DNA from: Parcubacteria group bacterium Gr01-1014_38 | GTDB taxonomy: Bacteria; Patescibacteriota; Andersenbacteria; UBA10190; CAIZMI01 | Direction of reading: 5' to 3' | Assembly (NCBI GenBank): GCA_007376145.1 | Contig: VMFP01000004.1 | Location: forward strand, 6,988-70,987 | DNA: 64,000 bases | Shown: positions 1 to 59,410 of the stretch, one piece after another | Position numbering within the stretch: the first letter of the stretch is position 1 | Layout: every line of letters starts with the position of its first letter | Program-made: the position numbers and the translations under genes | Notes under the pieces: model-generated | Seen by the model: the letters and a program-made list of their open reading frames with translations, nothing else | What the model was told of the DNA's origin: nothing | Database searches by the model: none

Positions 1-1308
1 ATAGTTGGTAACCCGCCCTTCATTCGATATCAATACCTCCCAAAGGATTTTCAGCAAAGAGCAGAGGAAGTTTTTGAAAATTTGGATTTACCATTTACGA
101 AACATGCCAACGCTTGGGTACCTTTTGTTTTAGCTTCTATGGCTCTACTGCGCCCCGGTGGTCGTCTCGCAATGGTAGTGCCAGCCGAGATTATGCATAT
201 CACGCATGCTCAACCCCTAAGGTCTTATTTAGGAAAAGAATGCCGCAGACTAGTAATCGTTGATCCGGAGGAACTTTGGTTTAGCGATACACTTCAAGGC
301 GCTGTTCTTCTTCTTGCTGAAAAAAAAGGTAGTCCCGCAGACAAAGCGGAAGGTGTTGGTATTTACCCAGTTAAGCAAAAAGAATTTCTCAATACTGATC
401 CTGAAATTATTTTCTCTGCTCCTAAATCATTAAATGGCAGAACGATCGCTGGAAAATGGACTTATGCACTCTTGGATCGCTCTGCCCGTTCTTTGTTGGA
501 TAACCTATCTAAACATCCGAATGTGCATCATTTTAAGGATATTGCAGAAGTAGATGTTGGGATTGTTACAGGTGCAAATAACTATTTTCTCGTCTCCGAT
601 GAAACTGTGGAGGAATTCGGCTTATCAAAATGGGCTCATCCTATGTTCGGACGAAGCAAGCACTGCCCTGGAGTTATTTATGACGAGTATCAACACCGAA
701 TGAATAAAGAGGAGGGCAAGCCAGCAAATTTTATTTGGTTTTCGGATGATTCTGTGAGTAGATACGTTTCCGCTCAAAAATATATAGACTACGGAGAGGA
801 ACAAAATCTTCATACACGATATAAATGCCGAGTTCGTGATCCTTGGTATTCAGTCCCCTCCGTCTACACTACGGAAATCGGGATGCTCAAAAGATCGCAC
901 GATGCGCCAAGACTCATACTCAATAAAATTGGAGCTTTTACTACTGATACGGCTTACCGAATTAGTGCTCACGGCGTGGCTAATAAGCGCCTAGTGGGAT
1001 CTTTTATTAACTCTTTAACGGCACTAAGCGCTGAACTCGAGGGACGTCATTATGGAGGTGGAGTATTAGAGTTAGTGCCGTCCGAAATTGAGAAACTACT
1101 CATCCCATTACCGGAATTAGCAGTGAATCTTACAGAACTGGACAAGGATGTTAAAACTTTACCGATGGTGGATGTTTTAGAGCAACAGGATAAGAAAATT
1201 TTAAGCAGCTTAGGGCTGACAAAATCTGAGCAGAATCTACTAGTAAATAACTGGCAAAGACTCCACGACAGACGCCAGAGGGTTTCGAGCGATTCCGAAA
1301 TCGCTTAG
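1..1308 (+). CDS. N6-adenine DNA methyltransferase (gamma-class, Eco57I/TaqI-like), 5' partial at window edge
   Basis: Reading frame is open from nt 1 and translates IVGNPPF (motif IV NPPF) followed by about 430 aa consistent with a target-recognition region. Codon usage is AT-rich relative to the rest of the window. The 3' end overlaps the convergent PLD nuclease gene by 4 nt. Confidence 0.7.
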   Translation: MVGNPPFIRYQYLPKDFQQRAEEVFENLDLPFTKHANAWVPFVLASMALLRPGGRLAMVVPAEIMHITHAQPLRSYLGKECRRLVIVDPEELWFSDTLQGAVLLLAEKKGSPADKAEGVGIYPVKQKEFLNTDPEIIFSAPKSLNGRTIAGKWTYALLDRSARSLLDNLSKHPNVHHFKDIAEVDVGIVTGANNYFLVSDETVEEFGLSKWAHPMFGRSKHCPGVIYDEYQHRMNKEEGKPANFIWFSDDSVSRYVSAQKYIDYGEEQNLHTRYKCRVRDPWYSVPSVYTTEIGMLKRSHDAPRLILNKIGAFTTDTAYRISAHGVANKRLVGSFINSLTALSAELEGRHYGGGVLELVPSEIEKLLIPLPELAVNLTELDKDVKTLPMVDVLEQQDKKILSSLGLTKSEQNLLVNNWQRLHDRRQRVSSDSEIA

Positions 1309-2477
1309 TCAATCTCCAGTACAAATCGTCCCTGATCCGCCTCATCTCTATAGAGGGACAAGGTACGTCCGATCAAATCTGGACGTGAGACGTATTCGCG
1401 TATAGGACCCCAACTCAAGCGCGTCATAGCGTTTCGTTGCTGATATGTACGACTGTTCGTATCGGTGCTATGCCTAATTTGTAGTGGAAACTCTCCGTAA
1501 TATATTCCTTTGATAATTAACTGAAAACGAGCCTCCGCTTCCTCCACGCTAACCGTTGCGCGAGGGGTCCACTGAAGGTGGGCAAAAGCTGCATCGCGAA
1601 AGTAGTGTCTGTGATCTATCGCTTCATCTAAAAGACCTTTATCTAGGTTTATAGAACCAGTTGCGTGCGTGCCTCTCTCATGAGGAATATTAAGATCTCG
1701 CTCTGTTAAGGCCTTGCTTTGCCAGACAAGCTCAAGATTGGTTGCGGCTTGGGTTTGAGGTTGTCCTTGGGGAACGTGGCCAACAGCTCGGCGGATTACT
1801 GGTTCTGATCGTGCACGCCGTGACGCACGAGATAGTGGTATAACATCAAGCCGAATGCGTGAAATCGGGTCATTGGAGGGCCTTGATGCGGTAACCGCGG
1901 GGCGTGGAGGCAGAGTTTCCGCCTCGTCGAGTAGGCGGCCACTGTTTTGTAATCTATCCAGCTCTAATGCACCTCGAATTATGAAAATATGTTCAGGATA
2001 TCTTCCGGGTAATTCGGTAAACTGCTCCTGAATTTCGCTGACGAATTCGCGATCGGATTGTTCATCTAGATTCAAATCGAGAGCCAAACTAGCCTCGATG
2101 TTATTGTTCAGCCCGCCGAGGGTTAGATTAGCACTGCCAACAAGCAAGCGTGCGTGTTGCGCACCTCTTGATAAATATAGCTTCGGATGAAAAATAACAC
2201 CCCGCGCTCCAGTATCTACAACGTAAACTGAAACTCCCAGTTCTAATAATCGAGCGAGTCCTTGGCGAGAGGTTATATCATTTCGTATGCCCGAGAAAAC
2301 TTTTGTTTTTGATGCGAAAGGGCGCAGATTATTTTCAATAAGACGTACCCCGTCTTCGTTTATAAAAGCAACACTAAGAACAATCTCCTCAATATCTGGA
2401 ATCTCAATTACGTGTCTGATAGCATCAATGTGATTCCGAGTTGTAAATCCCTGAAAAATAAAATCTTTACTCGCCAT
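1305..2477 (-). CDS. PLD/HKD-family nuclease, putative restriction endonuclease (BfiI/NgoAVII-like) with extra C-terminal domain
   Basis: HKD motif 'IFHPKLYLSRGAQHARLLVGSANLT' (HxK...GSxN). Most plausible start is the ATG at 2477..2475 (MASKDFIFQG); the track ORF extends further 5' into rpsI. AT-rich like the MTase. The start lies 9 nt downstream of the rpsI stop. Confidence 0.65.
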   Translation of the reverse strand: MASKDFIFQGFTTRNHIDAIRHVIEIPDIEEIVLSVAFINEDGVRLIENNLRPFASKTKVFSGIRNDITSRQGLARLLELGVSVYVVDTGARGVIFHPKLYLSRGAQHARLLVGSANLTLGGLNNNIEASLALDLNLDEQSDREFVSEIQEQFTELPGRYPEHIFIIRGALELDRLQNSGRLLDEAETLPPRPAVTASRPSNDPISRIRLDVIPLSRASRRARSEPVIRRAVGHVPQGQPQTQAATNLELVWQSKALTERDLNIPHERGTHATGSINLDKGLLDEAIDHRHYFRDAAFAHLQWTPRATVSVEEAEARFQLIIKGIYYGEFPLQIRHSTDTNSRTYQQRNAMTRLSWGPIREYVSRPDLIGRTLSLYRDEADQGRFVLEID

Positions 2478-4805: not shown

Positions 4806-5429
4806 TTAGCGCGAGTAGAATTCTACGACCGCGCGGAGGTCTACCGGAATCTCGGCTGGATCTGGCCGCGGAACGTCAATGACCTTCCCCGTCCACGGAT
4901 CCTCCCGCTTCAGCCAAGAAGGAAGAGTTTTCGTCGCCGTCCGCTCCGCCAGGTTGGTGAAGATCGGCTTTCCACGCTTCGCTTCCTTAATCTGAATCAC
5001 GTCATTCACCTTCACCGGGTACGAGGGGAGGTCCACCCGCCGGCCGTTCACCGCCATGAGCCCGTGGTGGACGAGTTGGCGAGCATGGGCCTGCGAGTGT
5101 GCGAAGCCGAGGCGGTACACAATCCGATCCAAGCGGGATTCCAACCGGGTAATGAGCGCATCAGCGGTCACGCCGCGTTCTGAACGTGCCTCGCGGAAGT
5201 ACCGCTGCAATTGACGCTCGCGAATGTTGTAGATAGCGCGGAGTGCTTGCTTCTCTTTCAGCTGCGCTCCGTACTCCGTCGGTGCGCGGCGCCTCTGCCC
5301 ATGGATGCCGGGCGGGTACGGACGCTGCACAATTGGACACTTCGGCGTGAAGCATTTCTCTCCCTTGAGGAAGAGCTTCGCGCCGGCGAGGCGACAACGA
5401 GCACACACGTGATCAAAGGCAATAGCCAT
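4806..5429 (-). CDS. rpsD: 30S ribosomal protein S4
   Basis: MAIAFDHVCARCRLAGAKLFLKGEKCFTPKCP… zinc-ribbon N-terminus and S4 domain. Confidence 0.95.
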   Translation of the reverse strand: MAIAFDHVCARCRLAGAKLFLKGEKCFTPKCPIVQRPYPPGIHGQRRRAPTEYGAQLKEKQALRAIYNIRERQLQRYFREARSERGVTADALITRLESRLDRIVYRLGFAHSQAHARQLVHHGLMAVNGRRVDLPSYPVKVNDVIQIKEAKRGKPIFTNLAERTATKTLPSWLKREDPWTGKVIDVPRPDPAEIPVDLRAVVEFYSR

Positions 5430-5441
5430 GGGAAAGTCCCG

Positions 5442-5909
5442 TTACACGCGACGCCGTCTCGGCGGTCGGCACCCGTTATGAGGAATGGGAGTGTTATCGC
5501 GGATGGAGGTGAGCACAAATCCACCGTGGGCGGCGAGTGTACGCACGGCCGATTCCCGTCCGCTCCCGATCCCGCGAATCACGACGGATGCTTCCTTCAC
5601 TTGGAATGGCTCGACGCGTTTCAGGAGATCGCGAACCACCTCGTTCGCAACGTACGGAGTCGACTTGCGTGCTCCTTGGTAGCCAATGCGACCGGCGCTG
5701 CTCCACGCAATGACCTTTCCCTCCGGGTCTGCAGCCGTCACGAGGGTGTTGTTGTACGTCGATTGAATGTGAATTTTGACCGTGGGAACCCGACGCCGTC
5801 CAACCTTTTTCTTACTCTCCTTGGCCGACGGTTGCTCCGCGGACGACGCAGACATCGTTGCTTCGGTGGCGGGGGTTTCCGCAGGCATGGCTACCGCTCT
5901 TTGATGCAT
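5442..5909 (-). CDS. rpsK: 30S ribosomal protein S11
   Basis: …TPIPHNGCRPPRRRRV C-terminus and S11 core. N-terminal start is uncertain (alternative ATGs at 5888 and 5855). Confidence 0.9.
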   Translation of the reverse strand: MHQRAVAMPAETPATEATMSASSAEQPSAKESKKKVGRRRVPTVKIHIQSTYNNTLVTAADPEGKVIAWSSAGRIGYQGARKSTPYVANEVVRDLLKRVEPFQVKEASVVIRGIGSGRESAVRTLAAHGGFVLTSIRDNTPIPHNGCRPPRRRRV

Positions 5910-6301
5910 TACTTCTTTTCCGGGGATGCGCGTCGGCCCGAACCTGCCGTCCGACGGATGTTCCCACGAACGGTCCGACTGTTCGTCCGCGTCCGCTGGC
6001 CGCGGACTGGCAGTCGCCGAATGTGCCGCAACCCGCGATAGCAGTGAATGTCCTTCAACCGTCGGATATTCTCGGTGACGTCACGCCGCAGCTCTCCCTC
6101 CACCGAGATACCGCGCTCGATACTCTCGCGGATGGCGCTTGCCTCTTTCTCTGTGAGATCCCGTACCTTCACCGACGGATCCACGCCGGCCTGGGCCAGG
6201 ATTTTCCCGCTCAGGCTTCGGCCAACGCCGTACAGGCGCGCCAAAGCAATTTCGACGCGCTTCTGATCCGGGAGAATCACACCGGCAATACGGATCGCCA
6301 T
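5909..6301 (-). CDS. rpsM: 30S ribosomal protein S13
   Basis: [32 protein letters not shown]… matches the S13 family. Confidence 0.95.
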
Positions 6302-6393
6302 AGGTCTGCTCAGTACTGAGTTCCGAGTTCTCAGTGGGTTACTGAAAGACTCAAACCTCGCAACTCATGACTCAGCGCTGCACTTGGCGGACA

Positions 6394-6510
6394 TTACCCC
6401 TGCCGCTGCTTGTGCTTCGGATTTGCCGGGCACACCACGAACAAGTGGCCTCGACGGCGGACTAATTTGCACTGCGCGCACCGGCGTTTTACGGAAGCAT
6501 GAACCTTCAT
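6394..6510 (-). CDS. rpmJ: 50S ribosomal protein L36
   Basis: Not in the ORF track (38 aa). Reverse-strand translation [38 protein letters not shown] has the C-x2-C…C…H pattern of L36. Sits between infA and rpsM as expected. Confidence 0.85.
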
Positions 6511-6620
6511 GAATGGTGTTCAAGATCCAAGGTCCGTGGTCACAGGACAGCCGCAGGGAGGCGGGATAAACAACCCTCGCCCGATGCTTGGGACCGCGTA
6601 CCTCGTTCCTTGATGGGTCG

Positions 6621-6845
6621 TTAGGAGCGTGCGTCGAGACGCTGGATGATTCTCCCGCGCGTGAGATCGTAGGGGGAGAGTTCGACGGTCACCCGGTCAC
6701 CGGGAAGGACTCGAATGCGGTGCACCCGCATGCGCCCGGAGATGTGCGCCAGCACTTCGTGTCCTCCCTCCGCTTCGACTCGGAACGTCGCGTTGGGAAG
6801 ATTCTCTTTCACGACCCCAGTCAGTTGGATCGTGTCCTTCGCCAC
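6621..6845 (-). CDS. infA: translation initiation factor IF-1
   Basis: [40 protein letters not shown]… S1-like IF-1. Confidence 0.95.
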
Positions 6846-7017
6846 AACAGAACGTTCAGAACGTTAGAAACTCCTGCGGAGAAGCCCGCAGCACTTCCTG
6901 GGGTGGTACTTGGAAGTAGACCGACAGGAACATGCCCAAGTGCGTGCGGAGCAGGATCACAGACGCGTTAGGATAGAGCATACGAAAGTCGGAAAGCGCT
7001 GTCAAGAGCAACGGTGA

Positions 7018-8526
7018 TCACGGTTGGGTTGCCACGTCGATGTGGATATTCCGGCGAAGCGAGGGAATGCGCTTGATCCAGACCGGCGAGAGACGAACCT
7101 CTGCGGTGCGCACGCCGGGAATCGCGCGGAGGAACGCGGCAGCATCATCCGCGGTTCTGCCTTGGAGCCGCTCACGCAGCTCATCGAAGTTGAGACGCGG
7201 GATCAGCGGGGTTTCTGAATGGAGCGAGAACTCGGTTCTCCCGTGGTCCCAGCGCACGTCGACGACCCGAAGGTCCTCAAAGGAGCTTTTCCGGACCGGA
7301 TCTTTCTCGTTCCCGATTCGCTGCTGAAGCAGATCGGTCAGAAATGCCTGGAGCGACGCAGCATCCGCGGTGAACGCCTCGCCGCGAACCGTGGTCCGAA
7401 TTCGGAAGGACTCTGCATCGGTCCCGACGGGGGGAGAGATTTCCGCCTCGCCAACGACCACGCGAGAAAGCTCCGGGCGCGAAAAGGACACCTGCTCCTG
7501 CCTCGAATGGGGCGTGGGCGCGGTACGCGCCTCACGTTGTATGAGTTCCAGGAGTTTGCGCTCGGCGTTCTCGCGAAGTGCGGTGGTACCCCGCTCAACG
7601 TCTGTGGTCGCGAGCTGGCGCACCAGCCGGTCAGTTCCGCCGTGCAGCGGACGCACGATTTCCCCGTAGAGAAGTCGACGGGATTCTGCCGGAAGCGCGG
7701 GTATGACGAGCCGCTGCGGGTCAAGATTTGCCTTGCTGCCTCCCTCCTCCGCCCGCACGGCAACCGACGCACGGCCCAAGGCTGGAACAATGACGTCGCG
7801 CTGCGTACGCACCACCACCCCCGACGTGCCCTGGAGCCGCGTGCGTGCTTTGATCCCCTGCTGGGCCGCCGTCTGGTTCACGATGTCGACCACGCCCTCG
7901 GCACGCGCTCCTTTCTCGACGGTGGTGTGAACGGGGAATTCCTCTTCGACTGCTTCCTCGATGCGGAGGAGGCGCGCGGGGTGTGTTCCGGTATCGCGTT
8001 GAGGTTCGCGCACACTCGCATCCAGTCGCAGGGTGAGATCAGCCGCAAATGGCTCGGTCGCGAGGACGAGACGGACGCGTGCCCGCGGCACCACGAACGT
8101 CACGACGCCGGTGAGAAGCATACCAGTGAGAACTGCGAAGACCGCCAGGGTCGCACGACCCCTCGGCGTCACGATGGGAAACCGCCGCCAGGGGAGCAAA
8201 GGGAGTTCACGGGGTCCTCCGGGGAGCAGGCGCCGCCTCCGGAAACTGGAAGAACCCGCCCGCTCCCGCGGCCCACGCTGATCAGCGCTGACCGTGGCGT
8301 GCCGTACTGCACGGTCAGCGAGCTGAAAGGTAATGTCCTTTCCAAAGTCTGCAGCGGTCGCTTGGAGGAGTCGGCGGACCAGCGGATCCGCCCGCAGAAC
8401 GGGATGTTGCCGGCAGTCGATTACGACGTGCGGGGCGGGAACTCGTTGGATCTTCTCCAGGATATCCGGCAGATCATCCGAGGCGGGGATGCGTAAGACG
8501 GGTGCCGTGCTCTGACTACTTGGCAT
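7018..8526 (-). CDS. hypothetical protein with a single transmembrane helix and a large C-terminal domain (possibly PilN/PilO-like)
   Basis: Long ORF with one hydrophobic helix (LAVFAVLTGMLLTGVVTFVV). The track ORF (to 8658) overlaps the upstream gene by about 140 nt; the internal ATG at 8526 was chosen to minimise overlap, so the start is uncertain. Confidence 0.4.
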   Translation of the reverse strand: MPSSQSTAPVLRIPASDDLPDILEKIQRVPAPHVVIDCRQHPVLRADPLVRRLLQATAADFGKDITFQLADRAVRHATVSADQRGPRERAGSSSFRRRRLLPGGPRELPLLPWRRFPIVTPRGRATLAVFAVLTGMLLTGVVTFVVPRARVRLVLATEPFAADLTLRLDASVREPQRDTGTHPARLLRIEEAVEEEFPVHTTVEKGARAEGVVDIVNQTAAQQGIKARTRLQGTSGVVVRTQRDVIVPALGRASVAVRAEEGGSKANLDPQRLVIPALPAESRRLLYGEIVRPLHGGTDRLVRQLATTDVERGTTALRENAERKLLELIQREARTAPTPHSRQEQVSFSRPELSRVVVGEAEISPPVGTDAESFRIRTTVRGEAFTADAASLQAFLTDLLQQRIGNEKDPVRKSSFEDLRVVDVRWDHGRTEFSLHSETPLIPRLNFDELRERLQGRTADDAAAFLRAIPGVRTAEVRLSPVWIKRIPSLRRNIHIDVATQP

Positions 8527-54577: not shown

Positions 54578-54989
54578 ACGTCCTCCTGAGAGAGTGTTGA
54601 GGTTTAGTTGTCCAAAGAGATAAAAATCCTAGCAGTAAACAGCCTTCCTGTCAAGGTTCGCTGAAGATACGCGTCAGACGTGATACACTAGCAAGACCTC
54701 TCTCCAATGATCGAATCGAAGTTCAGTGAATTCTTTCGGAGTCCGCTCGGCGTGCTCTCGGTGATCGGCGTGATTTTTGTCGCTGGCGTTCTCGTCTTTC
54801 TTTTTGTCGCGCGCGTCTTCCGCGGCCTGATTGAACAAGCCCCGCCGGTGCTGTACTAATTCGCAAGCCAGCCCCACTTCGCCAAAAGCTCCGCGGGGCA
54901 CAACCTCTCCCCGGAGAGGCTGTGGAAAAGTGGGGGTTGACGGCGGTTCGCAGTGCGATACGCTCAGTTCAGAACAGCTTTTTCCAACT

Positions 54990-55180
54990 TTTGGCGTTCA
55001 GTCGGAGTGAAGTGGGTGAAATTCCCACGCTGTGCCGCAACGGTAATTACCCTTAAGCAGCGTCGAAGGGTAAAAGTCCGATCTTCCTCTGAACGATTCT
55101 CGTTCTCCCGAGCAGGAGTGTCGTAAAGACAACGATTGTTGGTGCGTTGCGCCCTGTTCGAGAGAACAGGATTTTTTCTT
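54990..55180 (+). promoter_or_regulatory. cobalamin (AdoCbl) riboswitch with intrinsic-terminator expression platform
   Basis: Conserved core GGTGAAATTCC (55015-55025), then …CTGTGCCGCAACGGTAAT… and a B12-box-like AGTCCGATCTTCC. Followed by terminator CCTGTTCGAGAGAACAGG+TTTTTT (55153-55177). Gene start at 55197. Confidence 0.6.
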
Positions 55181-55196
55181 AATTGTGCGCGCACAC

Positions 55197-55736
55197 ATGC
55201 CGAGCACATTCTTCGCAAAATTCCGTCGCTTCGGGCCTGAAGCGCTCTCACTCGCCCTGCTTCTTCCGCTTGTCCTCGTCCTGGGGTTCGTCCTAACGCG
55301 GTTTCCGAAGGATAGTGTCGTCACGCCGCCTGCGCCGTCCCCAACCGGTAGCATTGTCTCTCCAGCAGCCACCCCGACCAGTTCTCCGGAAGCTTCTCCG
55401 GTATTCAAAGCTCAAACACAGATCATCACCCTCGAAATTCGTGGTCCGGAGGGGTCCGCAACCTACCGGCTACCGGCGCAGGCAGAAGCATCCGTCGCGG
55501 ACCTTCTCGTTCGCGCTTCACTAGAACAGGGGCTTCGCCTGGAAACCAAAGACTACGGAGGGTCACTCGGGATCTTTGTGAAAGCACTCAACGGCTCCCG
55601 TAATGACCCGAAGCGCAAACTGTACTGGTCCTTGTACGTCAATGGGGTGTTCTCGCAACTCGGCGCTTCCAGCGCACGGGTACGCCCCGGCGACAGCGTG
55701 ACCTGGGCGTACGAGCCGATGCACGAAGAGCAATGA
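55197..55736 (+). CDS. DUF4430-domain protein (transcobalamin/intrinsic-factor beta-domain-like, putative corrinoid-binding) with N-terminal anchor and Pro/Ser/Thr linker
   Basis: …DYGGSLGIFVKALNGSRNDPKRKLYWSLYVNGVFSQLGASSARVRPGDSVTWAYE matches the DUF4430 signature (YW.YVNG…GD.[IV].W.Y). Confidence 0.7.
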   Translation: MPSTFFAKFRRFGPEALSLALLLPLVLVLGFVLTRFPKDSVVTPPAPSPTGSIVSPAATPTSSPEASPVFKAQTQIITLEIRGPEGSATYRLPAQAEASVADLLVRASLEQGLRLETKDYGGSLGIFVKALNGSRNDPKRKLYWSLYVNGVFSQLGASSARVRPGDSVTWAYEPMHEEQ

Positions 55737-57739
55737 TCCGGCGACGGTGGCACTGGTGGGGACTCGGCTGGGGCTTCGTACTTATCGCCGCAGCGGGCGC
55801 ACTCGGGCAAGGAGCCGACGGCGTTTCTGTTTCTCTCCGCATTGAAGGAAGCACGACGACCGTGTTCGAGGGCACGGTGACCGCGACGCCCTGCACCATT
55901 ACCGATACCGCGGGGAAAGAGCACGCCCTGCCCGCAGTAGCAGCCTGTGCGCTCCAGAAAGCAGCGCAAGAGCGGAAATTCGCCACAAGCTTCCAGGATT
56001 TCGGATTCGGCTTGTTCCTGAAAAAGATTGCCGGAGACGATACGCCGCCTGATTTTTCCCGATCCTGGAACTTCTGGGTGAACGACGATCCCGCCAGCGT
56101 TGGATTGGATACCTACGCGGTGACACCGAATGACCGGATTCTCCTCGCCTTTGCTCCGTATCCCGGCGTTCCGCTGCGCGTCACGGCGCCGGAGAAAGCA
56201 ATACTCGGGACTTCTCTTCCTGTCCGGGTCGAAAAGCGCGTGGGGGACTTCGACGCGCAGTTCGTCTGGCACGGACGCTGGGAGCCCGCCGCCGGCGCAA
56301 CGCTTCACGTGGGTGACGCTGCGCATCTGGTCCCGAGCGACGGCACGGTCACCCTGACGTTTCCAGAGTCAGGATCGTTCCCACTCTCCGCCGATGGATC
56401 CGGATTCGTCCGGAGCGCTCGGAGGACACTCGCCGTGGCCGCGCCCTCGCCGAGTCCCACCCCGTCTCCTTCCCCCTCCCCGACGCCAACACCAGCACCG
56501 ACGCCAACGCCGACAGCCGCGCCAAGCCCGACGCCGAGTCCGCAACCGACACCGGTGCCCGATGTCTCTCCGGAGCAGCGGCGCGAGCGCGCTCGTTCCG
56601 CGCTCCGGTATCTGCGCAGTCAGCAGCGCGACGGAGGCGACATTGACGGCGACATCGTGACCGCGTGGAGCGCGATCGCGTTCGGGGCGAATGAAGAGCG
56701 CGGCAAGACAATTCGCAGCGATCAGTCTTCCCTTCTGGACGCGCTGACACGTGGCCGACTCATCTCCGCGACAGATATCGAGCGTCACATCCTCGCGGTC
56801 CGAGCAACCGGAGCAAATCCACGCTCGTTCAACGGCAGTGATCTCCTCCAGCTCCTGCGCCAGCGCGTTCGGAACGGACAGATCGGCGAAGAAACACTGG
56901 TGAATGACGATATCTTCGGCATTCTTGCGTTCGTTGCGGCGGGGGAACCGGCAAACGATGCAGACGTTCAGAGCGCCGTGCGCACTGTCCTTCAGTACCA
57001 GGTAGGAGATGGATCGTTCGGCGGCCTTGATTTGACCGCAGCGGCGATGCAATCCCTCCACGCGTATACCGTTCGCGGCGGAAGCCAGCAGGTAAGCACC
57101 GCCCTCGACCGGGCACGCGCGCACCTCCGCTCCCGCCAGGACCGCTTCGGCGGCTTCGGAGAAAATTCTGCGACGACTGCCTGGGCACTGCAAGCACTCG
57201 TCGCAGTTGGCGAGGATCCAGCGACCTGGCGTACCACGGATGGCGCCACGCCGTGGACAGCGCTTCTCCGATACCAAAACGCGGGCGGGGGCTTCGGGTG
57301 GAAAACACGCGAGGACGTTTCGCCGTTCATGACGGCCTATGCAGTGCCGGCACTGCTTGGTGTGCCGTGGCCTGTCACACTTCTCGGCATCGAGTCCGCT
57401 TTCGCAGCTCCGGTCTCTTCCCCGACCCCAACGCCCACGGCAGCGCCGCGGCCGCGCGTCGCGGGAACCGCTGCCGGAGCGCCATCAGCAGTCACCGCGA
57501 CGGTTGCATCGCCCGCCCCGTCTCGCGCGCTGTCGTCCATGACTAACCAGTCATCCGAGACGGCAACAGCACCGACGTCCGTGCCTACCGCTGACAGCGA
57601 AATGCTCCGCACACCTCCCGGATTTGTTCCCCTCGCCTCGGTTGACCGGCAGTTCGCGCTCACGCTGTTTGGCGCTGCGAATATCGGTGTCGGGCTTTCG
57701 GTGGCACGCATCATCAGCAAACTGCGAGGCAGCCTTTAG
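55733..57739 (+). CDS. two-domain surface protein: N-terminal DUF4430 + C-terminal prenyltransferase/terpene-cyclase-like alpha/alpha-toroid repeats, PT-rich linkers, C-terminal TM anchor
   Basis: N-terminal …FGFGLFLKKIAGDD…WNFWVNDDPASVGLDTYAVTPNDRILLAF. Repeats QQRDGGDI…, VGDGSFGG…, RQDRFGGFGENSATTAWALQAL, QNAGGGFGW. PSPTPSPSPSPTPTP linker. Terminal hydrophobic helix. Confidence 0.65.
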   Translation: MIRRRWHWWGLGWGFVLIAAAGALGQGADGVSVSLRIEGSTTTVFEGTVTATPCTITDTAGKEHALPAVAACALQKAAQERKFATSFQDFGFGLFLKKIAGDDTPPDFSRSWNFWVNDDPASVGLDTYAVTPNDRILLAFAPYPGVPLRVTAPEKAILGTSLPVRVEKRVGDFDAQFVWHGRWEPAAGATLHVGDAAHLVPSDGTVTLTFPESGSFPLSADGSGFVRSARRTLAVAAPSPSPTPSPSPSPTPTPAPTPTPTAAPSPTPSPQPTPVPDVSPEQRRERARSALRYLRSQQRDGGDIDGDIVTAWSAIAFGANEERGKTIRSDQSSLLDALTRGRLISATDIERHILAVRATGANPRSFNGSDLLQLLRQRVRNGQIGEETLVNDDIFGILAFVAAGEPANDADVQSAVRTVLQYQVGDGSFGGLDLTAAAMQSLHAYTVRGGSQQVSTALDRARAHLRSRQDRFGGFGENSATTAWALQALVAVGEDPATWRTTDGATPWTALLRYQNAGGGFGWKTREDVSPFMTAYAVPALLGVPWPVTLLGIESAFAAPVSSPTPTPTAAPRPRVAGTAAGAPSAVTATVASPAPSRALSSMTNQSSETATAPTSVPTADSEMLRTPPGFVPLASVDRQFALTLFGAANIGVGLSVARIISKLRGSL

Positions 57740-57749
57740 CCTTCTGCGC

Positions 57750-58307
57750 ATGAAGCGTATCGCCGGGGGAACAATCGTGGTGTTGAGTCTCATTCTTCTC
57801 TCGGCCGCGGCTCGGCTGTTTCCACATCCGGCAAACGTTTCACCAATCGCGGCGATTGCGCTCCTCGGGGGAGCGTCACTGCATCTTCCCTGGGCGCTTG
57901 CTGCACCTGGCGCGGCGATGCTCTTGTCAGACCTCGTGATCGGGTTCGACCGCCTTCCGATTACGCTCTCCGTGTACGGATCATTCTTCGCAAGCGTTTT
58001 CCTCGGGCGGTGGCTCCGCGGTCGGTCCAGCCCGTGGCGCACGCTCGGCACCGCGCTTGCAAGTTCCATCCTGTTTTACCTCGTCACGAATGCGGCGGTG
58101 TGGTGGTTCTCGGGACTGTACGCGCAGACCTTCGATGGCTTGATGCTTTCCTACTTCTACGCCATCCCTTTCTTCCGCCACACGCTGCTGGGCGACCTTG
58201 GGTACACCGTGGCGCTCTTCTGGGCGTACGAGTACGCTCCGCGCCTTGCCATCTTCTCATTCCGCCACCAACAGAGTCCGTCGCGTCAGCACGTGTCTGT
58301 GAGGTGA
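57750..58307 (+). CDS. small polytopic membrane protein (5-6 TM), candidate corrinoid permease / ECF S-component-like
   Basis: ATG at 57750 (MKRIAGGTIVVLSLILLSAA…). Last gene of the riboswitch-led operon. Confidence 0.5.
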   Translation: MKRIAGGTIVVLSLILLSAAARLFPHPANVSPIAAIALLGGASLHLPWALAAPGAAMLLSDLVIGFDRLPITLSVYGSFFASVFLGRWLRGRSSPWRTLGTALASSILFYLVTNAAVWWFSGLYAQTFDGLMLSYFYAIPFFRHTLLGDLGYTVALFWAYEYAPRLAIFSFRHQQSPSRQHVSVR

Positions 58308-58330
58308 AACGCTCCATCCAGGCAGACGGA

Positions 58331-59410
58331 ATGGCTGGCCTGTTCCGTTTTTTTCGCCCTGTGGTACAGTCTCCTGTCATGCATCGAACAGGGGTCGCAG
58401 ACCAACCGCTCCCATCTTCGCTTGAGCGGGTGCACCAGGGCGTTCTGCGGGTACTGCACGACGTCCGTCTGCCCTCCCGGCCGACATTTTCTGAACTCCT
58501 ACGAAAAGAATGGAGTCCCGTCCCGCCCGTTGAACTCTCCGCATCCGCGCTCCACGAGGAGGAGATGAATCGCTTGTATGAACTTCGCGCCCAGCTCCTG
58601 GACTGGACAGTGGAAACCGGTTTCCTGGGGTTCTTCGATGAGAACGCCGGCCGACGATATATTTACACGCGCCGACTCGAGGTTTTTGAGGAAGTACTTC
58701 CCGATCTCCGTGGAAAGCGTGTTCTCGAGATTGGGTGCGCGGCAGGGATCGTTGCCGCCCTTCTCGCTCCATCCTGCCAAGAGTTTATCGGCATTGACGT
58801 CACGGAAACGGCGGTGCAGTTTGCTCGTCAGCTCCACCGGGAGCTTGGCATCTTCAACAGCCGGTTTTTCGTTGCCGATGCCCACGCGCTCCCATTTCCA
58901 GACCGACGGTTTGATGTTCTCGCGAGTACGGAGACATTTGAACATCTCCTCCACCCCGCGAAGGCGCTGGAAGAATTCCACCGCGTGCTCGTGCCGGGAG
59001 GAAGTATTACCCTCACAACCACGACAGCGCTCACACCCTCCGATCTTGCCGTGAAGCTCATTCGGCTCTTTAAGCGAGATTTTTACGTTGATACCGAGGA
59101 GCAATTCGACAAAAAGGCGTACCTGGCTGCCCAGGAGAAAGGCCTCGCGGTCCCTCCAGAGGTCTTCCGACGCGTGCATCGCCGATTTGGATACGCGAAT
59201 CTCGTTCGTCTCTTCCAGCGTCAGGGATTTTCTGTTGAGCGTGCGAAAGGCGCGGTCCTCGCCTTCCCGCCCGTCTACCTTGCCGTCTATCAGTTTTTTC
59301 CGCAGTCGCTGCTCCCTGTGGTACGGTGGGGAGAAGAACTCTTAAATGAGCTGGGCATTTTCAAGCGCTTTGGCTCGGTTACGACAGGGTTTCACCTCCG
59401 GCGTCTCTAA
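58331..59410 (+). CDS. class I SAM-dependent methyltransferase
   Basis: Motif I VLEIGCAAGIVAALLA and Methyltransf_11-like core. Start is ambiguous (ATG at 58331 or 58379). Confidence 0.75.
   Translation: MAGLFRFFRPVVQSPVMHRTGVADQPLPSSLERVHQGVLRVLHDVRLPSRPTFSELLRKEWSPVPPVELSASALHEEEMNRLYELRAQLLDWTVETGFLGFFDENAGRRYIYTRRLEVFEEVLPDLRGKRVLEIGCAAGIVAALLAPSCQEFIGIDVTETAVQFARQLHRELGIFNSRFFVADAHALPFPDRRFDVLASTETFEHLLHPAKALEEFHRVLVPGGSITLTTTTALTPSDLAVKLIRLFKRDFYVDTEEQFDKKAYLAAQEKGLAVPPEVFRRVHRRFGYANLVRLFQRQGFSVERAKGAVLAFPPVYLAVYQFFPQSLLPVVRWGEELLNELGIFKRFGSVTTGFHLRRL

Follow-up and report, generated by a model that had tools for sequence, protein, structure and literature searches.

The window analyzed here, a 64,000-nucleotide (nt) stretch of the genome of Parcubacteria group bacterium Gr01-1014_38 (contig VMFP01000004.1, positions 6,988 to 70,987 of the forward strand), contains an element directly upstream of a three-gene operon that comparative analysis identifies as a cobalamin riboswitch of class II architecture, a known kind of element found here in a Parcubacterium. 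Probably, it is a B12-repressed (OFF) transcriptional switch, in which a kissing loop, an antiterminator, and an intrinsic terminator make up the expression platform of a B12-scavenging operon. This reading is supported by computed aptamer homology and covariation, by the conservation of a hairpin named P13a and of the terminator, by the complementarity between the two, and by the gene context. We infer from the sequence that the RNA binds its ligand and in which direction it switches. An initial annotation of this region had proposed a cobalamin riboswitch 5' of the first gene, its expression platform being of the terminator type, and homology, covariation, and conservation support that proposal. 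The functional unit is longer than the extent given there, 54990-55180: it begins with the promoter at 54937 and includes a hairpin that closes on the start codon at 55197. Three features go beyond the routine: the lineage escapes the Rfam cut-offs, loops L5 and L13 carry a compensating variant pair, and the start codon bears a second hairpin of the docking type.

Conservation and covariation of the aptamer

Relatives of gene 1 and gene 2 of the operon were gathered from genome, metagenome, and Logan contigs. The three-gene unit (DUF4430 protein, ~660-amino-acid [aa] protein, and DUF6580 protein) is syntenic in all sufficiently long contigs, and a cobalamin-clan match lies directly upstream at every locus with enough 5' sequence. 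In total, the same element was found 5' of the orthologous operon in 14 other distinct leaders, with the aptamer, promoter, P13 motif, and terminator conserved in place. A covariance model built from 13 leaders scores the window at 102.6 bits, with the window itself in the training set, and finds a single copy in the window. On leaders outside the training set, the same lineage model gives 87.4 bits for L042/L043, 78.6 bits for L037-L041, and 52.5 bits for the more distant leader L008.

The alignment of these 13 leaders favors the canonical cobalamin fold. Under this structure, 86.6% of the alignment cells are paired, whereas sliding the partners by 1-3 columns leaves 41-54% paired, and the covariation score is 0.365 versus 0.10-0.17 for the slid structures, a value reached by none of 500 shuffles. 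Double changes occur in 16 pairs of the canonical structure, and RNAalifold reports compensatory changes in 13 of 26 pairs. The covariation originates from P1/P3, one P4 pair, and all pairs of the P6 extension; no variation occurs in P5 or at the P6 base, which are thus uninformative in this respect. While the helices vary, the junctions and loops GUGAAG, GGGUG..A..CCC, CUGUGCCGCAACGGU.A, and AGUCCG are invariant. In addition, AAGUCCGAUC is invariant or nearly so across the homologues and aligns to the RF01482 consensus AAGUCAGGUCUUU. The core motifs pointed out in the initial annotation, GGTGAAATTCC (55015-55025) and CCGCAACGGTAA (55035-55046), are all present, as is the B12-box-like AGTCCGATCTTCC (55075-55087), and the P3-P6 helices, on which that annotation had made its reading depend, form and covary across the 13 homologues. 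The predicted four-way junction of P3-P6 with no P2 arm, together with a P1/P3 interrupted only by a 2x1 mismatch, has a shape like that of the cobalamin (Cbl) subclass Cbl-IIb, represented by RF01482.

Predicted expression platform and switching mechanism

Aligning the leaders by eye revealed a hairpin motif, YCC-CGAGCA-GGAG (P13a), which Rfam does not model. In the window, P13a starts 9 nt past P1. The sequence CCGAGCAGGAG is exact in 10 fetched loci, and close variants occur in L007, L028, L008, L037, and L042. On its own, P13a is a weak hairpin of 4 base pairs (bp), with a free energy (dG) of -3.4 kcal/mol. Its loop, L13a, is complementary to the L5 nucleotides UGCCG: RNAduplex pairs the two as U:A, G:C, C:G, a bulged base, C:G, and G:C, giving 5 bp and a bulge, an arrangement available to 19 of the 4,096 possible hexamers. 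The published L5 consensus is UCCCG, of which the central C-C-G pairs with L13, and a bulge in the kissing loop has been described for env8 as well as for A. halodurans cobT (PMC10327014). Compared with this L5 consensus and with the L13 consensus CGAGG of RF01482, the lineage has exchanged C for G in L5 and G for C in L13, and these differences from the outside consensus sequences read as a compensatory pair, consistent with the predicted L5-L13a kissing pairs.

Two other candidates were rejected. As an L5 partner, GUUGCG (55146-55151; complement of CGCAAC) is not conserved, with AUUGCG in L005 and a different segment in L028 and L029. The P13 aligned by RF01482 (55099-55137) contains a mismatch, lacks an L5-complementary loop, and has a G-to-A change in its stem in L005; P13a was preferred. 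In L030 (1300-1385) and L027 (2852-2900), an insertion of ~50-90 nt with two extra hairpins separates the aptamer from the P13a motif, and the first extra hairpin of L030 is the P13 aligned by RF01482, which raises the score of this leader past the cut-off. The distant DUF4430 locus L008 (2755-2970), with an RF00174-type match of 48 bits, has an L5 of UGCCG, a UCC-CGAGCA-GGA hairpin, and a terminator, indicating that the L5/L13 variant pair extends past the clade of the window. Among distant DUF4430 loci, just 2 of 20 have a cobalamin riboswitch at the gathering score.

Downstream of P13a, the stem-loop and U6 tract reported by the initial annotation were confirmed as CCTGTTC-GAGA-GAACAGG (55153-55170) followed by A and T6 (55172-55177), in agreement with a terminator scan. 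The stem consists of 7 bp, 4 of which are G-C pairs, with a dG of -9.7 kcal/mol, and the ATG of the first gene (55197-55199) lies 19 nt beyond the T-run, with an in-frame GTG at 55185. An equivalent hairpin and U-run, with stems that are altered yet still pair, is found in L005, L027, L028, L030, L036, L002, L007, L037, L042, and L008; across relatives, the stems read CCUGUUC/GAACAGG, CUCUGUUC/GAACAGAG, CUUUGUUC/GAACGGAG, CCUGUUU/GAACAGG, CUCUGC/GCAGAG, and CCUGCUC/GGGCAGG. The best downstream duplex partner of the P13a motif is the terminator or a sequestering hairpin in 10 of 13 loci; for L006 and L001, this partner is a Shine-Dalgarno-sequestering hairpin.

The antiterminator appears in the minimum free energy (MFE) folds of the window's leader (Table 1). 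In the window platform, the antiterminator state (-39.6 kcal/mol) is 7 kcal/mol more stable than the state with P13a plus terminator (-32.4 kcal/mol), and it is already the MFE structure of an RNA that reaches only to 55163 and thus still lacks the terminator 3' arm. This suggests that RNA polymerase would read through when no ligand is present. P13/L13 (55105-55118) and the pairing of 55109-55119 with 55151-55160 are likely the switching elements that were missing from the initial annotation.

Taken together, the following mechanism is proposed. The promoter at 54937-54964 would drive a leader RNA, the first ~100 nt of which (54995-55095) would fold as a class II cobalamin aptamer. With a corrinoid bound, L5-L13a kissing would hold P13a closed, allowing the terminator (55153-55170 plus U6) to form and transcription to stop. 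With no ligand, 55109-55119 would instead pair with 55151-55160 and block the terminator, and RNA polymerase would read through into the operon. This switching logic matches that of Priestia megaterium metE, and on this basis we interpret the element as a transcriptional switch that B12 turns off. In metE, a kissing loop stabilizes an otherwise weaker P13, the 3' side of which would else form the antiterminator, as proven by compensatory mutagenesis (PMC10327014). Both systems would share a P13 stabilized by L5-L13 kissing. However, metE belongs to class I and has a contiguous 5-bp UCCCG kissing loop and a longer P13 with an internal loop, whereas the window has a class II aptamer, a predicted bulged kissing loop, and a 4-bp P13.

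Table 1 Features of the riboswitch region and the operon downstream (window coordinates)
Feature	Position	Strand	Basis or remark
Conserved box GTGGAAAAGTGGGGG	54922..54936	+	Directly 5' of -35 hexamer
Putative sigma-70-type promoter	54937..54964	+	-35 TTGACG 54937-54942; 16-nt spacer; -10 TACGCT 54959-54964
Predicted cobalamin aptamer, class II architecture	54995..55095	+	RF01482 match, covariation, lineage model
P1/P3	54995-55001 with 55089-55095; 55004-55006 with 55085-55087	+	2x1 internal loop 55002-55003/55088
J3/4 GUGAAG	55007-55012	+	
P4/L4	55013-55027	+	
P5/L5	55030-55040	+	
L5 kissing-loop nucleotides UGCCG (predicted)	55033..55037	+	Invariant in all homologues; RNAduplex
P6	55041-55043 with 55078-55080	+	
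P6 hairpin extension, 8 bp	55047-55054 with 55066-55073	+	
B12-box-like AGUCCGAUCUUCC	55075..55087	+	P6 3' strand, J6/3, and inner P3 3' strand
J6/3 AUCU	55081-55084	+	
P13a/L13a CUCC-CGAGCA-GGAG	55105..55118	+	Loop 55109-55114; predicted L5 docking partner and antiterminator 5' strand
Predicted antiterminator, 55109-55119 with 55151-55160	55109..55160	+	MFE folds; consumes L13a, P13a 3' arm, and terminator 5' arm
Predicted intrinsic terminator	55153..55177	+	Stem 55153-55159 with 55164-55170; GAGA loop; A; U6 55172-55177
P13b/L13b UGUG-CGCGCA-CACA	55184..55197	+	Loop 55188-55193; candidate second docking site
Gene 1, 179-aa membrane-anchored DUF4430 protein, transcobalamin-like beta-grasp	55197..55736	+	PF14478, E 6.5e-14
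Gene 2, 668-aa putative surface B12 binder	55733..57739	+	PF14478 match, toroid models, fold matches
Gene 3, 185-aa DUF6580 membrane protein, putative BtuM-like (ECF S-component-type) B12 transporter	57750..58307	+	PF20221, E 6e-42

Evidence against the proposed switch, and its placement in the cobalamin clan

Several observations weigh against the switch as proposed. At gathering thresholds, an Rfam scan of the whole 64-kb window matched zero families, and the models RF00174, RF01482, and RF01689 (clan CL00101) all stayed below their curated gathering scores there. Neither L5 nor L13 varies in the lineage, leaving the kissing pairs without internal covariation and dependent on the outside consensus sequences, and a local alternative hairpin at 55096-55119 (-6.7 kcal/mol) competes with P13a. 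Terminator-like sites number 1 in 1 kb against a shuffle mean of 1.2, which is not significant alone, and the complementarity between motif and terminator is modest per locus (shuffle p 0.000-0.19). The best partner of the motif lies elsewhere in L028 and L036, and in L030, L036, and L001, the MFE structure retains the terminator even with the motif free. Moreover, the predicted ligand-free long hairpin (55096-55172) abuts the U-tract via five weak pairs and might itself terminate transcription. To our knowledge, intrinsic termination is uncharacterized in this phylum. The promoter and terminator signals are individually nonsignificant and are therefore meaningful only in context.

With E-value reporting over 54700-55400, the best cobalamin-clan model is RF01482 (adenosylcobalamin [AdoCbl]), which matches over its full length at 54981-55137 with 40.8 bits, compared to a cut-off of 50; its E-value of 5.2e-6 refers to this 701-nt search and becomes ~5e-4 when scaled to the whole window. 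RF00174 and RF01689 scored below RF01482 and were suppressed as clan overlaps. RF00174, the model by which the initial annotation had proposed to check its claim, stays below its cut-off of 31.5, an outcome that the annotation itself had counted against a riboswitch, while the sister model RF01482 is significant. For this reason, the question was settled by comparison with relatives. Among these, L030 lies above the RF01482 cut-off (57.8 bits), and L033 (47.5 bits) and L007 (43.3 bits) pass that of RF01689. The remaining leaders, at 32.5-44.1 bits for RF01482 and, in L028, 26.8 for RF00174, are all below the cut-offs. Overall, 12 of the 15 distinct leaders fall below every Rfam cobalamin gathering score and 3 of 15 lie above one.

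Other features of the clan are found in the window. The four-way junction of P3, P4, P5, and P6 is supported by covariation, and the core nucleotides, comprising J3/4, the L4 T-loop GUGAAAUUC, L5, and the B12-box/J6/3, are invariant in 13 homologues and align to the Rfam consensus. The genes controlled are related to B12, as judged from DUF4430, PF01122 matches of gene 2 orthologues, the BtuM fold, and the class II ribonucleotide reductase beside the operon in L037-L041. As in Cbl-IIb, there is no P2 loop-stem-loop, J1/3 is short and mismatched, and P6 carries a short hairpin extension. The terminator has the makeup of an intrinsic one, a G+C-containing hairpin and a U-tract, and is mutually exclusive with the antiterminator. 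As the cut-off is a curation threshold and not a structural feature, the element was filed in CL00101 on these grounds. The subthreshold score would thus reflect a class II aptamer from a divergent lineage, not the absence of a riboswitch. Routine Rfam thresholds overlook the cobalamin switches of this lineage, which marks a blind spot of standard annotation. Literature searches on cobalamin riboswitches in the candidate phyla radiation (CPR) gave nothing relevant, and the element points to a CPR Parcubacterium that regulates B12 scavenging by riboswitch.

The low Rfam score would also be expected if the resemblance to a riboswitch were due to chance or if the element were a decayed, nonfunctional remnant. 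We regard this as extremely improbable, given that a covarying element is kept in 15 distinct leaders, always before the same operon, with invariant junction nucleotides and a conserved promoter and terminator.

A second candidate docking hairpin at the start codon

A hairpin of the same loop type, P13b, is located at the start codon of gene 1. Its 4-bp stem is capped by a CG(N)GCA hexaloop, and the A of AUG takes part in the final pair. The sequence GUG-CG(C/U/A)GCA-CAC stands directly before the AUG in nine leaders (the window, L005, L028, L029, L030, L031, L032, L034, and L035), with a variant in L007. In L032, L034, and L035, the start-proximal hairpin is the sole P13, ~15 nt past P1, and no terminator is present, so that these leaders look like ordinary translational class II switches. 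This hints at dual control in the window, in which P13a would direct termination while a docked P13b would occlude the AUG and repress the translation of read-through mRNAs. We consider such dual control possible, yet somewhat doubtful.

In its favor, the hairpin abuts the AUG in all of these leaders, and its variation is confined to the predicted bulged base (C, U, or A). The three leaders in which it is the lone P13 imply that it must be regulatory there, and the AUG of gene 1 is not preceded by a Shine-Dalgarno sequence. Hairpins with a CGNGCA loop are also rare, with 11 on the plus strand of the 64-kb window, two of which lie within these 92 nt. In the antiterminator fold, in which L13a is buried, ~77 nt (55096-55172) are closed off; P13b stays free, with ~11 nt between it and the aptamer base. 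For env8, regulation works at unstructured linkers of ~5-25 nt and fades beyond ~30 nt (PMC5028336). Tentatively, the antiterminator helix may serve to shorten the distance so that L5 can reach P13b, a part of the model to which we give rather less than even weight. On the other hand, P13b shows no covariation, is weak (-1.9 kcal/mol), and lies 88 nt from P1 in sequence. Its absence in L027, L033, L002, L006, L001, L037, and L042 shows that it is not a requirement of the family. Alternatively, it could be left over from an ancestral platform of the translational type or serve initiation that does not depend on a Shine-Dalgarno sequence. A literature search, which cannot prove that none exists, found no precedent for two L13 hairpins, and searches on two expression platforms gave nothing relevant. 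The arrangement looks as if a transcriptional module had been inserted into a translational platform comparable to those of L032, L034, and L035. If dual control is true, the duplicated docking hairpin is a simple case of one aptamer read out at two levels. As a precedent, the cyclic di-GMP riboswitch Bc1 is reported to combine one aptamer with multiple control layers via a long dual platform (PMC11218506), although its ligand class is different and it uses two terminators, not two copies of a docking hairpin.

The same three relatives with the start-proximal hairpin alone could be taken to mean that control is translational only, with P13b as the regulatory element and the hairpin plus U6 as a constitutive attenuator or nonworking terminator. 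This would agree with class II switches such as env8, which are typically translational, and with the fact that both predicted states of the window leader put a hairpin beside the U-tract. We nevertheless judge it improbable. The 9-nt spacing between P1 and P13a is optimal, far more leaders keep the P13a motif than keep P13b, and this motif has its best partner in the terminator or sequestering hairpin at the 10 of 13 loci mentioned above. The terminator stems vary and still pair, and L033, L002, L037, L042, and L008 have P13a and a terminator with no P13b. The transcriptional switch described above is thus preferred for the window.

Two further readings of sequences near the start codon were discarded. 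The segment GTGCGCGCAC (55185-55194) could be a palindromic protein operator, but relatives with CGAGCA and CGUGCA loops lose the palindrome and keep the hairpin and the loop ends, which makes an RNA hairpin likelier than a DNA operator. A third CGAGCA at codons 2-4 (55201-55206), with a possible AUG-CCGAGCA-CAU hairpin, is absent in the closest relative, L005 (CCGAGUGAA), and in L030 and is probably due to chance.

Ligand form and closest known systems

From the Cbl-IIb architecture and the AdoCbl-dependent reductase that neighbors the operon in relatives, the switch is predicted to be selective for AdoCbl. Cbl-IIb riboswitches have been reported as AdoCbl selective and are marked by a short mismatched or paired J1/3, a short P6 hairpin, and the lack of P2 (PMC7367189). 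Because L033 and L007, which lack the P6 hairpin, resemble RF01689, both the subclass and the ligand form that it implies are uncertain. A switch that senses methyl- or hydroxocobalamin in the manner of Cbl-IIa, or that is promiscuous, therefore has to be considered. The core GUGAAAUUC...GCAACGGUAA...AGUCCGA closely matches the RF01689 consensus, and L033 and L007 score above the cut-off of RF01689 but not above that of RF01482. Furthermore, secondary structure is an unreliable guide to selectivity, and no structure of a Cbl-IIb riboswitch is available (PMC7367189). Nevertheless, the window has both Cbl-IIb features, namely, a short mismatched J1/3 (not a bulged T-loop) and the short P6 hairpin, RF01482 scores highest, and the one B12 enzyme seen beside an orthologous operon, the class II ribonucleotide reductase, depends on AdoCbl. 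Sensing of another corrinoid, or promiscuity, is thus rather unlikely, and AdoCbl is the likelier ligand.

Of the known families, RF01482 shares most with the window: the P3-P6 four-way junction, L4 GUGAAAUUC, the short P6 hairpin, the lack of P2, a UCUU-type J6/3, and a full-length match. It differs in that the window scores 40.8 bits, below the cut-off of 50, has UGCCG instead of UCCCG in L5 and CG(N)GCA in L13, and contains the conserved P13a at 55105-55118 instead of the aligned P13. RF01689 (AdoCbl-II or "AdoCbl-variant," including the env8 hydroxocobalamin riboswitch; Cbl-IIa) has a near-identical core, is the model passed by L033 and L007, and would share the bulged L13 base of the kissing loop reported for env8. 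In contrast to this family, the window has a 27-nt hairpin in L6, no bulged J1/3 T-loop, a score below the cut-off, and a terminator as its platform rather than a ribosome-binding site inside P13. RF00174 (classical Cbl-I, such as Escherichia coli btuB) is a further member of the clan, shares the core junction, and controls B12 uptake genes. However, the window lacks its P2 loop-stem-loop and P7-P11 extension, and RF00174 scores below RF01482.

Promoter and upstream box

The sigma-70-like hexamers TTGACG and TACGCT named in the initial annotation are both present, but its coordinates were one base too high, the -35 hexamer lying at 54937-54942. Transcription would start at ~54970-54973. A generic promoter scan does not call the site at 54937-54964, the -10 hexamer of which matches the consensus at 3 of 6 positions. 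The pattern TTGAC[GAT]-16/18 nt-TA(N3)T recurs in 13 of 15 leaders, 11 of which have a 16-nt spacer and the site 41-45 nt before GUGAAG, with diverged spacer sequences. This positional conservation supports a promoter despite the weak -10 hexamer. A conserved box, also given as GTGGAAAAGYGGGG, abuts the -35 hexamer and is identical or nearly so in L005, L027, L028, L029, and L030 and partly so in L035; it could be an UP-like element or a regulator binding site.

Operon genes and B12 context

The three genes encode plausible B12 binders and a plausible transporter, as suggested by family and fold matches, and an uptake operon of this kind would be expected to be repressed by B12. The gene 1 product is 100% identical to a protein recorded for Parcubacteria group bacterium Gr01-1014_38. 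DUF4430 belongs to the transcobalamin-like clade of beta-grasp proteins (PMC1796856). In gene 2, a signal or transmembrane segment is followed by DUF4430, a beta domain, a Pro/Thr-rich linker, an alpha/alpha toroid, and a C-terminal transmembrane anchor. Its orthologues match terpene-cyclase toroid models in 43 of 50 cases and PF01122, the eukaryotic cobalamin-binding protein family, in 9 of 50. The AlphaFold 2 (AF2) model of the gene 2 product (pLDDT 83.7) has fold matches that include transcobalamin (E 3e-6 to 1e-5), unseparated from terpene cyclases and complement thioester-containing domains (TED). NCBI names this protein "peptidase domain protein," and its domain order is reversed relative to transcobalamin.

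For gene 3, the AF2 model (pLDDT 90.8) has BtuM, a solitary ECF-type B12 transporter, with hydroxycobalamin (8ovv) as its best fold match in the PDB (TM 0.64/0.67, probability 1.0, and an E-value of just 0.015), followed by FolT and RibU, which are S components of energy-coupling factor (ECF) transporters. The DUF6580 family is annotated merely as "putative transport protein." The start of the open reading frame listed for gene 3 (57624) is too early, and the ATG lies at 57750, 10 nt past the gene 2 stop. When the three operon proteins were searched by sequence against the PDB, the matches were of low complexity or insignificant only, and NCBIfam offered no useful family for them. The operon ties three poorly annotated families (DUF4430, DUF4430 with an alpha-toroid, and DUF6580) to B12 uptake in reduced auxotrophic cells.

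Among ten other genes of the window that were scanned, no B12-dependent enzyme was found; they are cell-envelope, tRNA-synthetase, and type-IV-coupling-like genes. In L037-L041, a class II AdoCbl-dependent ribonucleotide reductase directly follows the operon (~5327-7055; from 4088 onward in L040/L041) and is likely the consumer of the imported B12. A class I S-adenosylmethionine-dependent methyltransferase gene with no evident link to B12 adjoins the operon in most relatives, in either orientation (58010-59410 in the window). Upstream of the riboswitch, a weak match to CRISPR-DR16 (54815-54836; 15.9 bits, E 1.5) is not significant and is ascribed to chance, with no repeat array nearby. At the start of the window (1-2000), the G+C content is 0.45, compared to about 0.58-0.65 elsewhere in the window.

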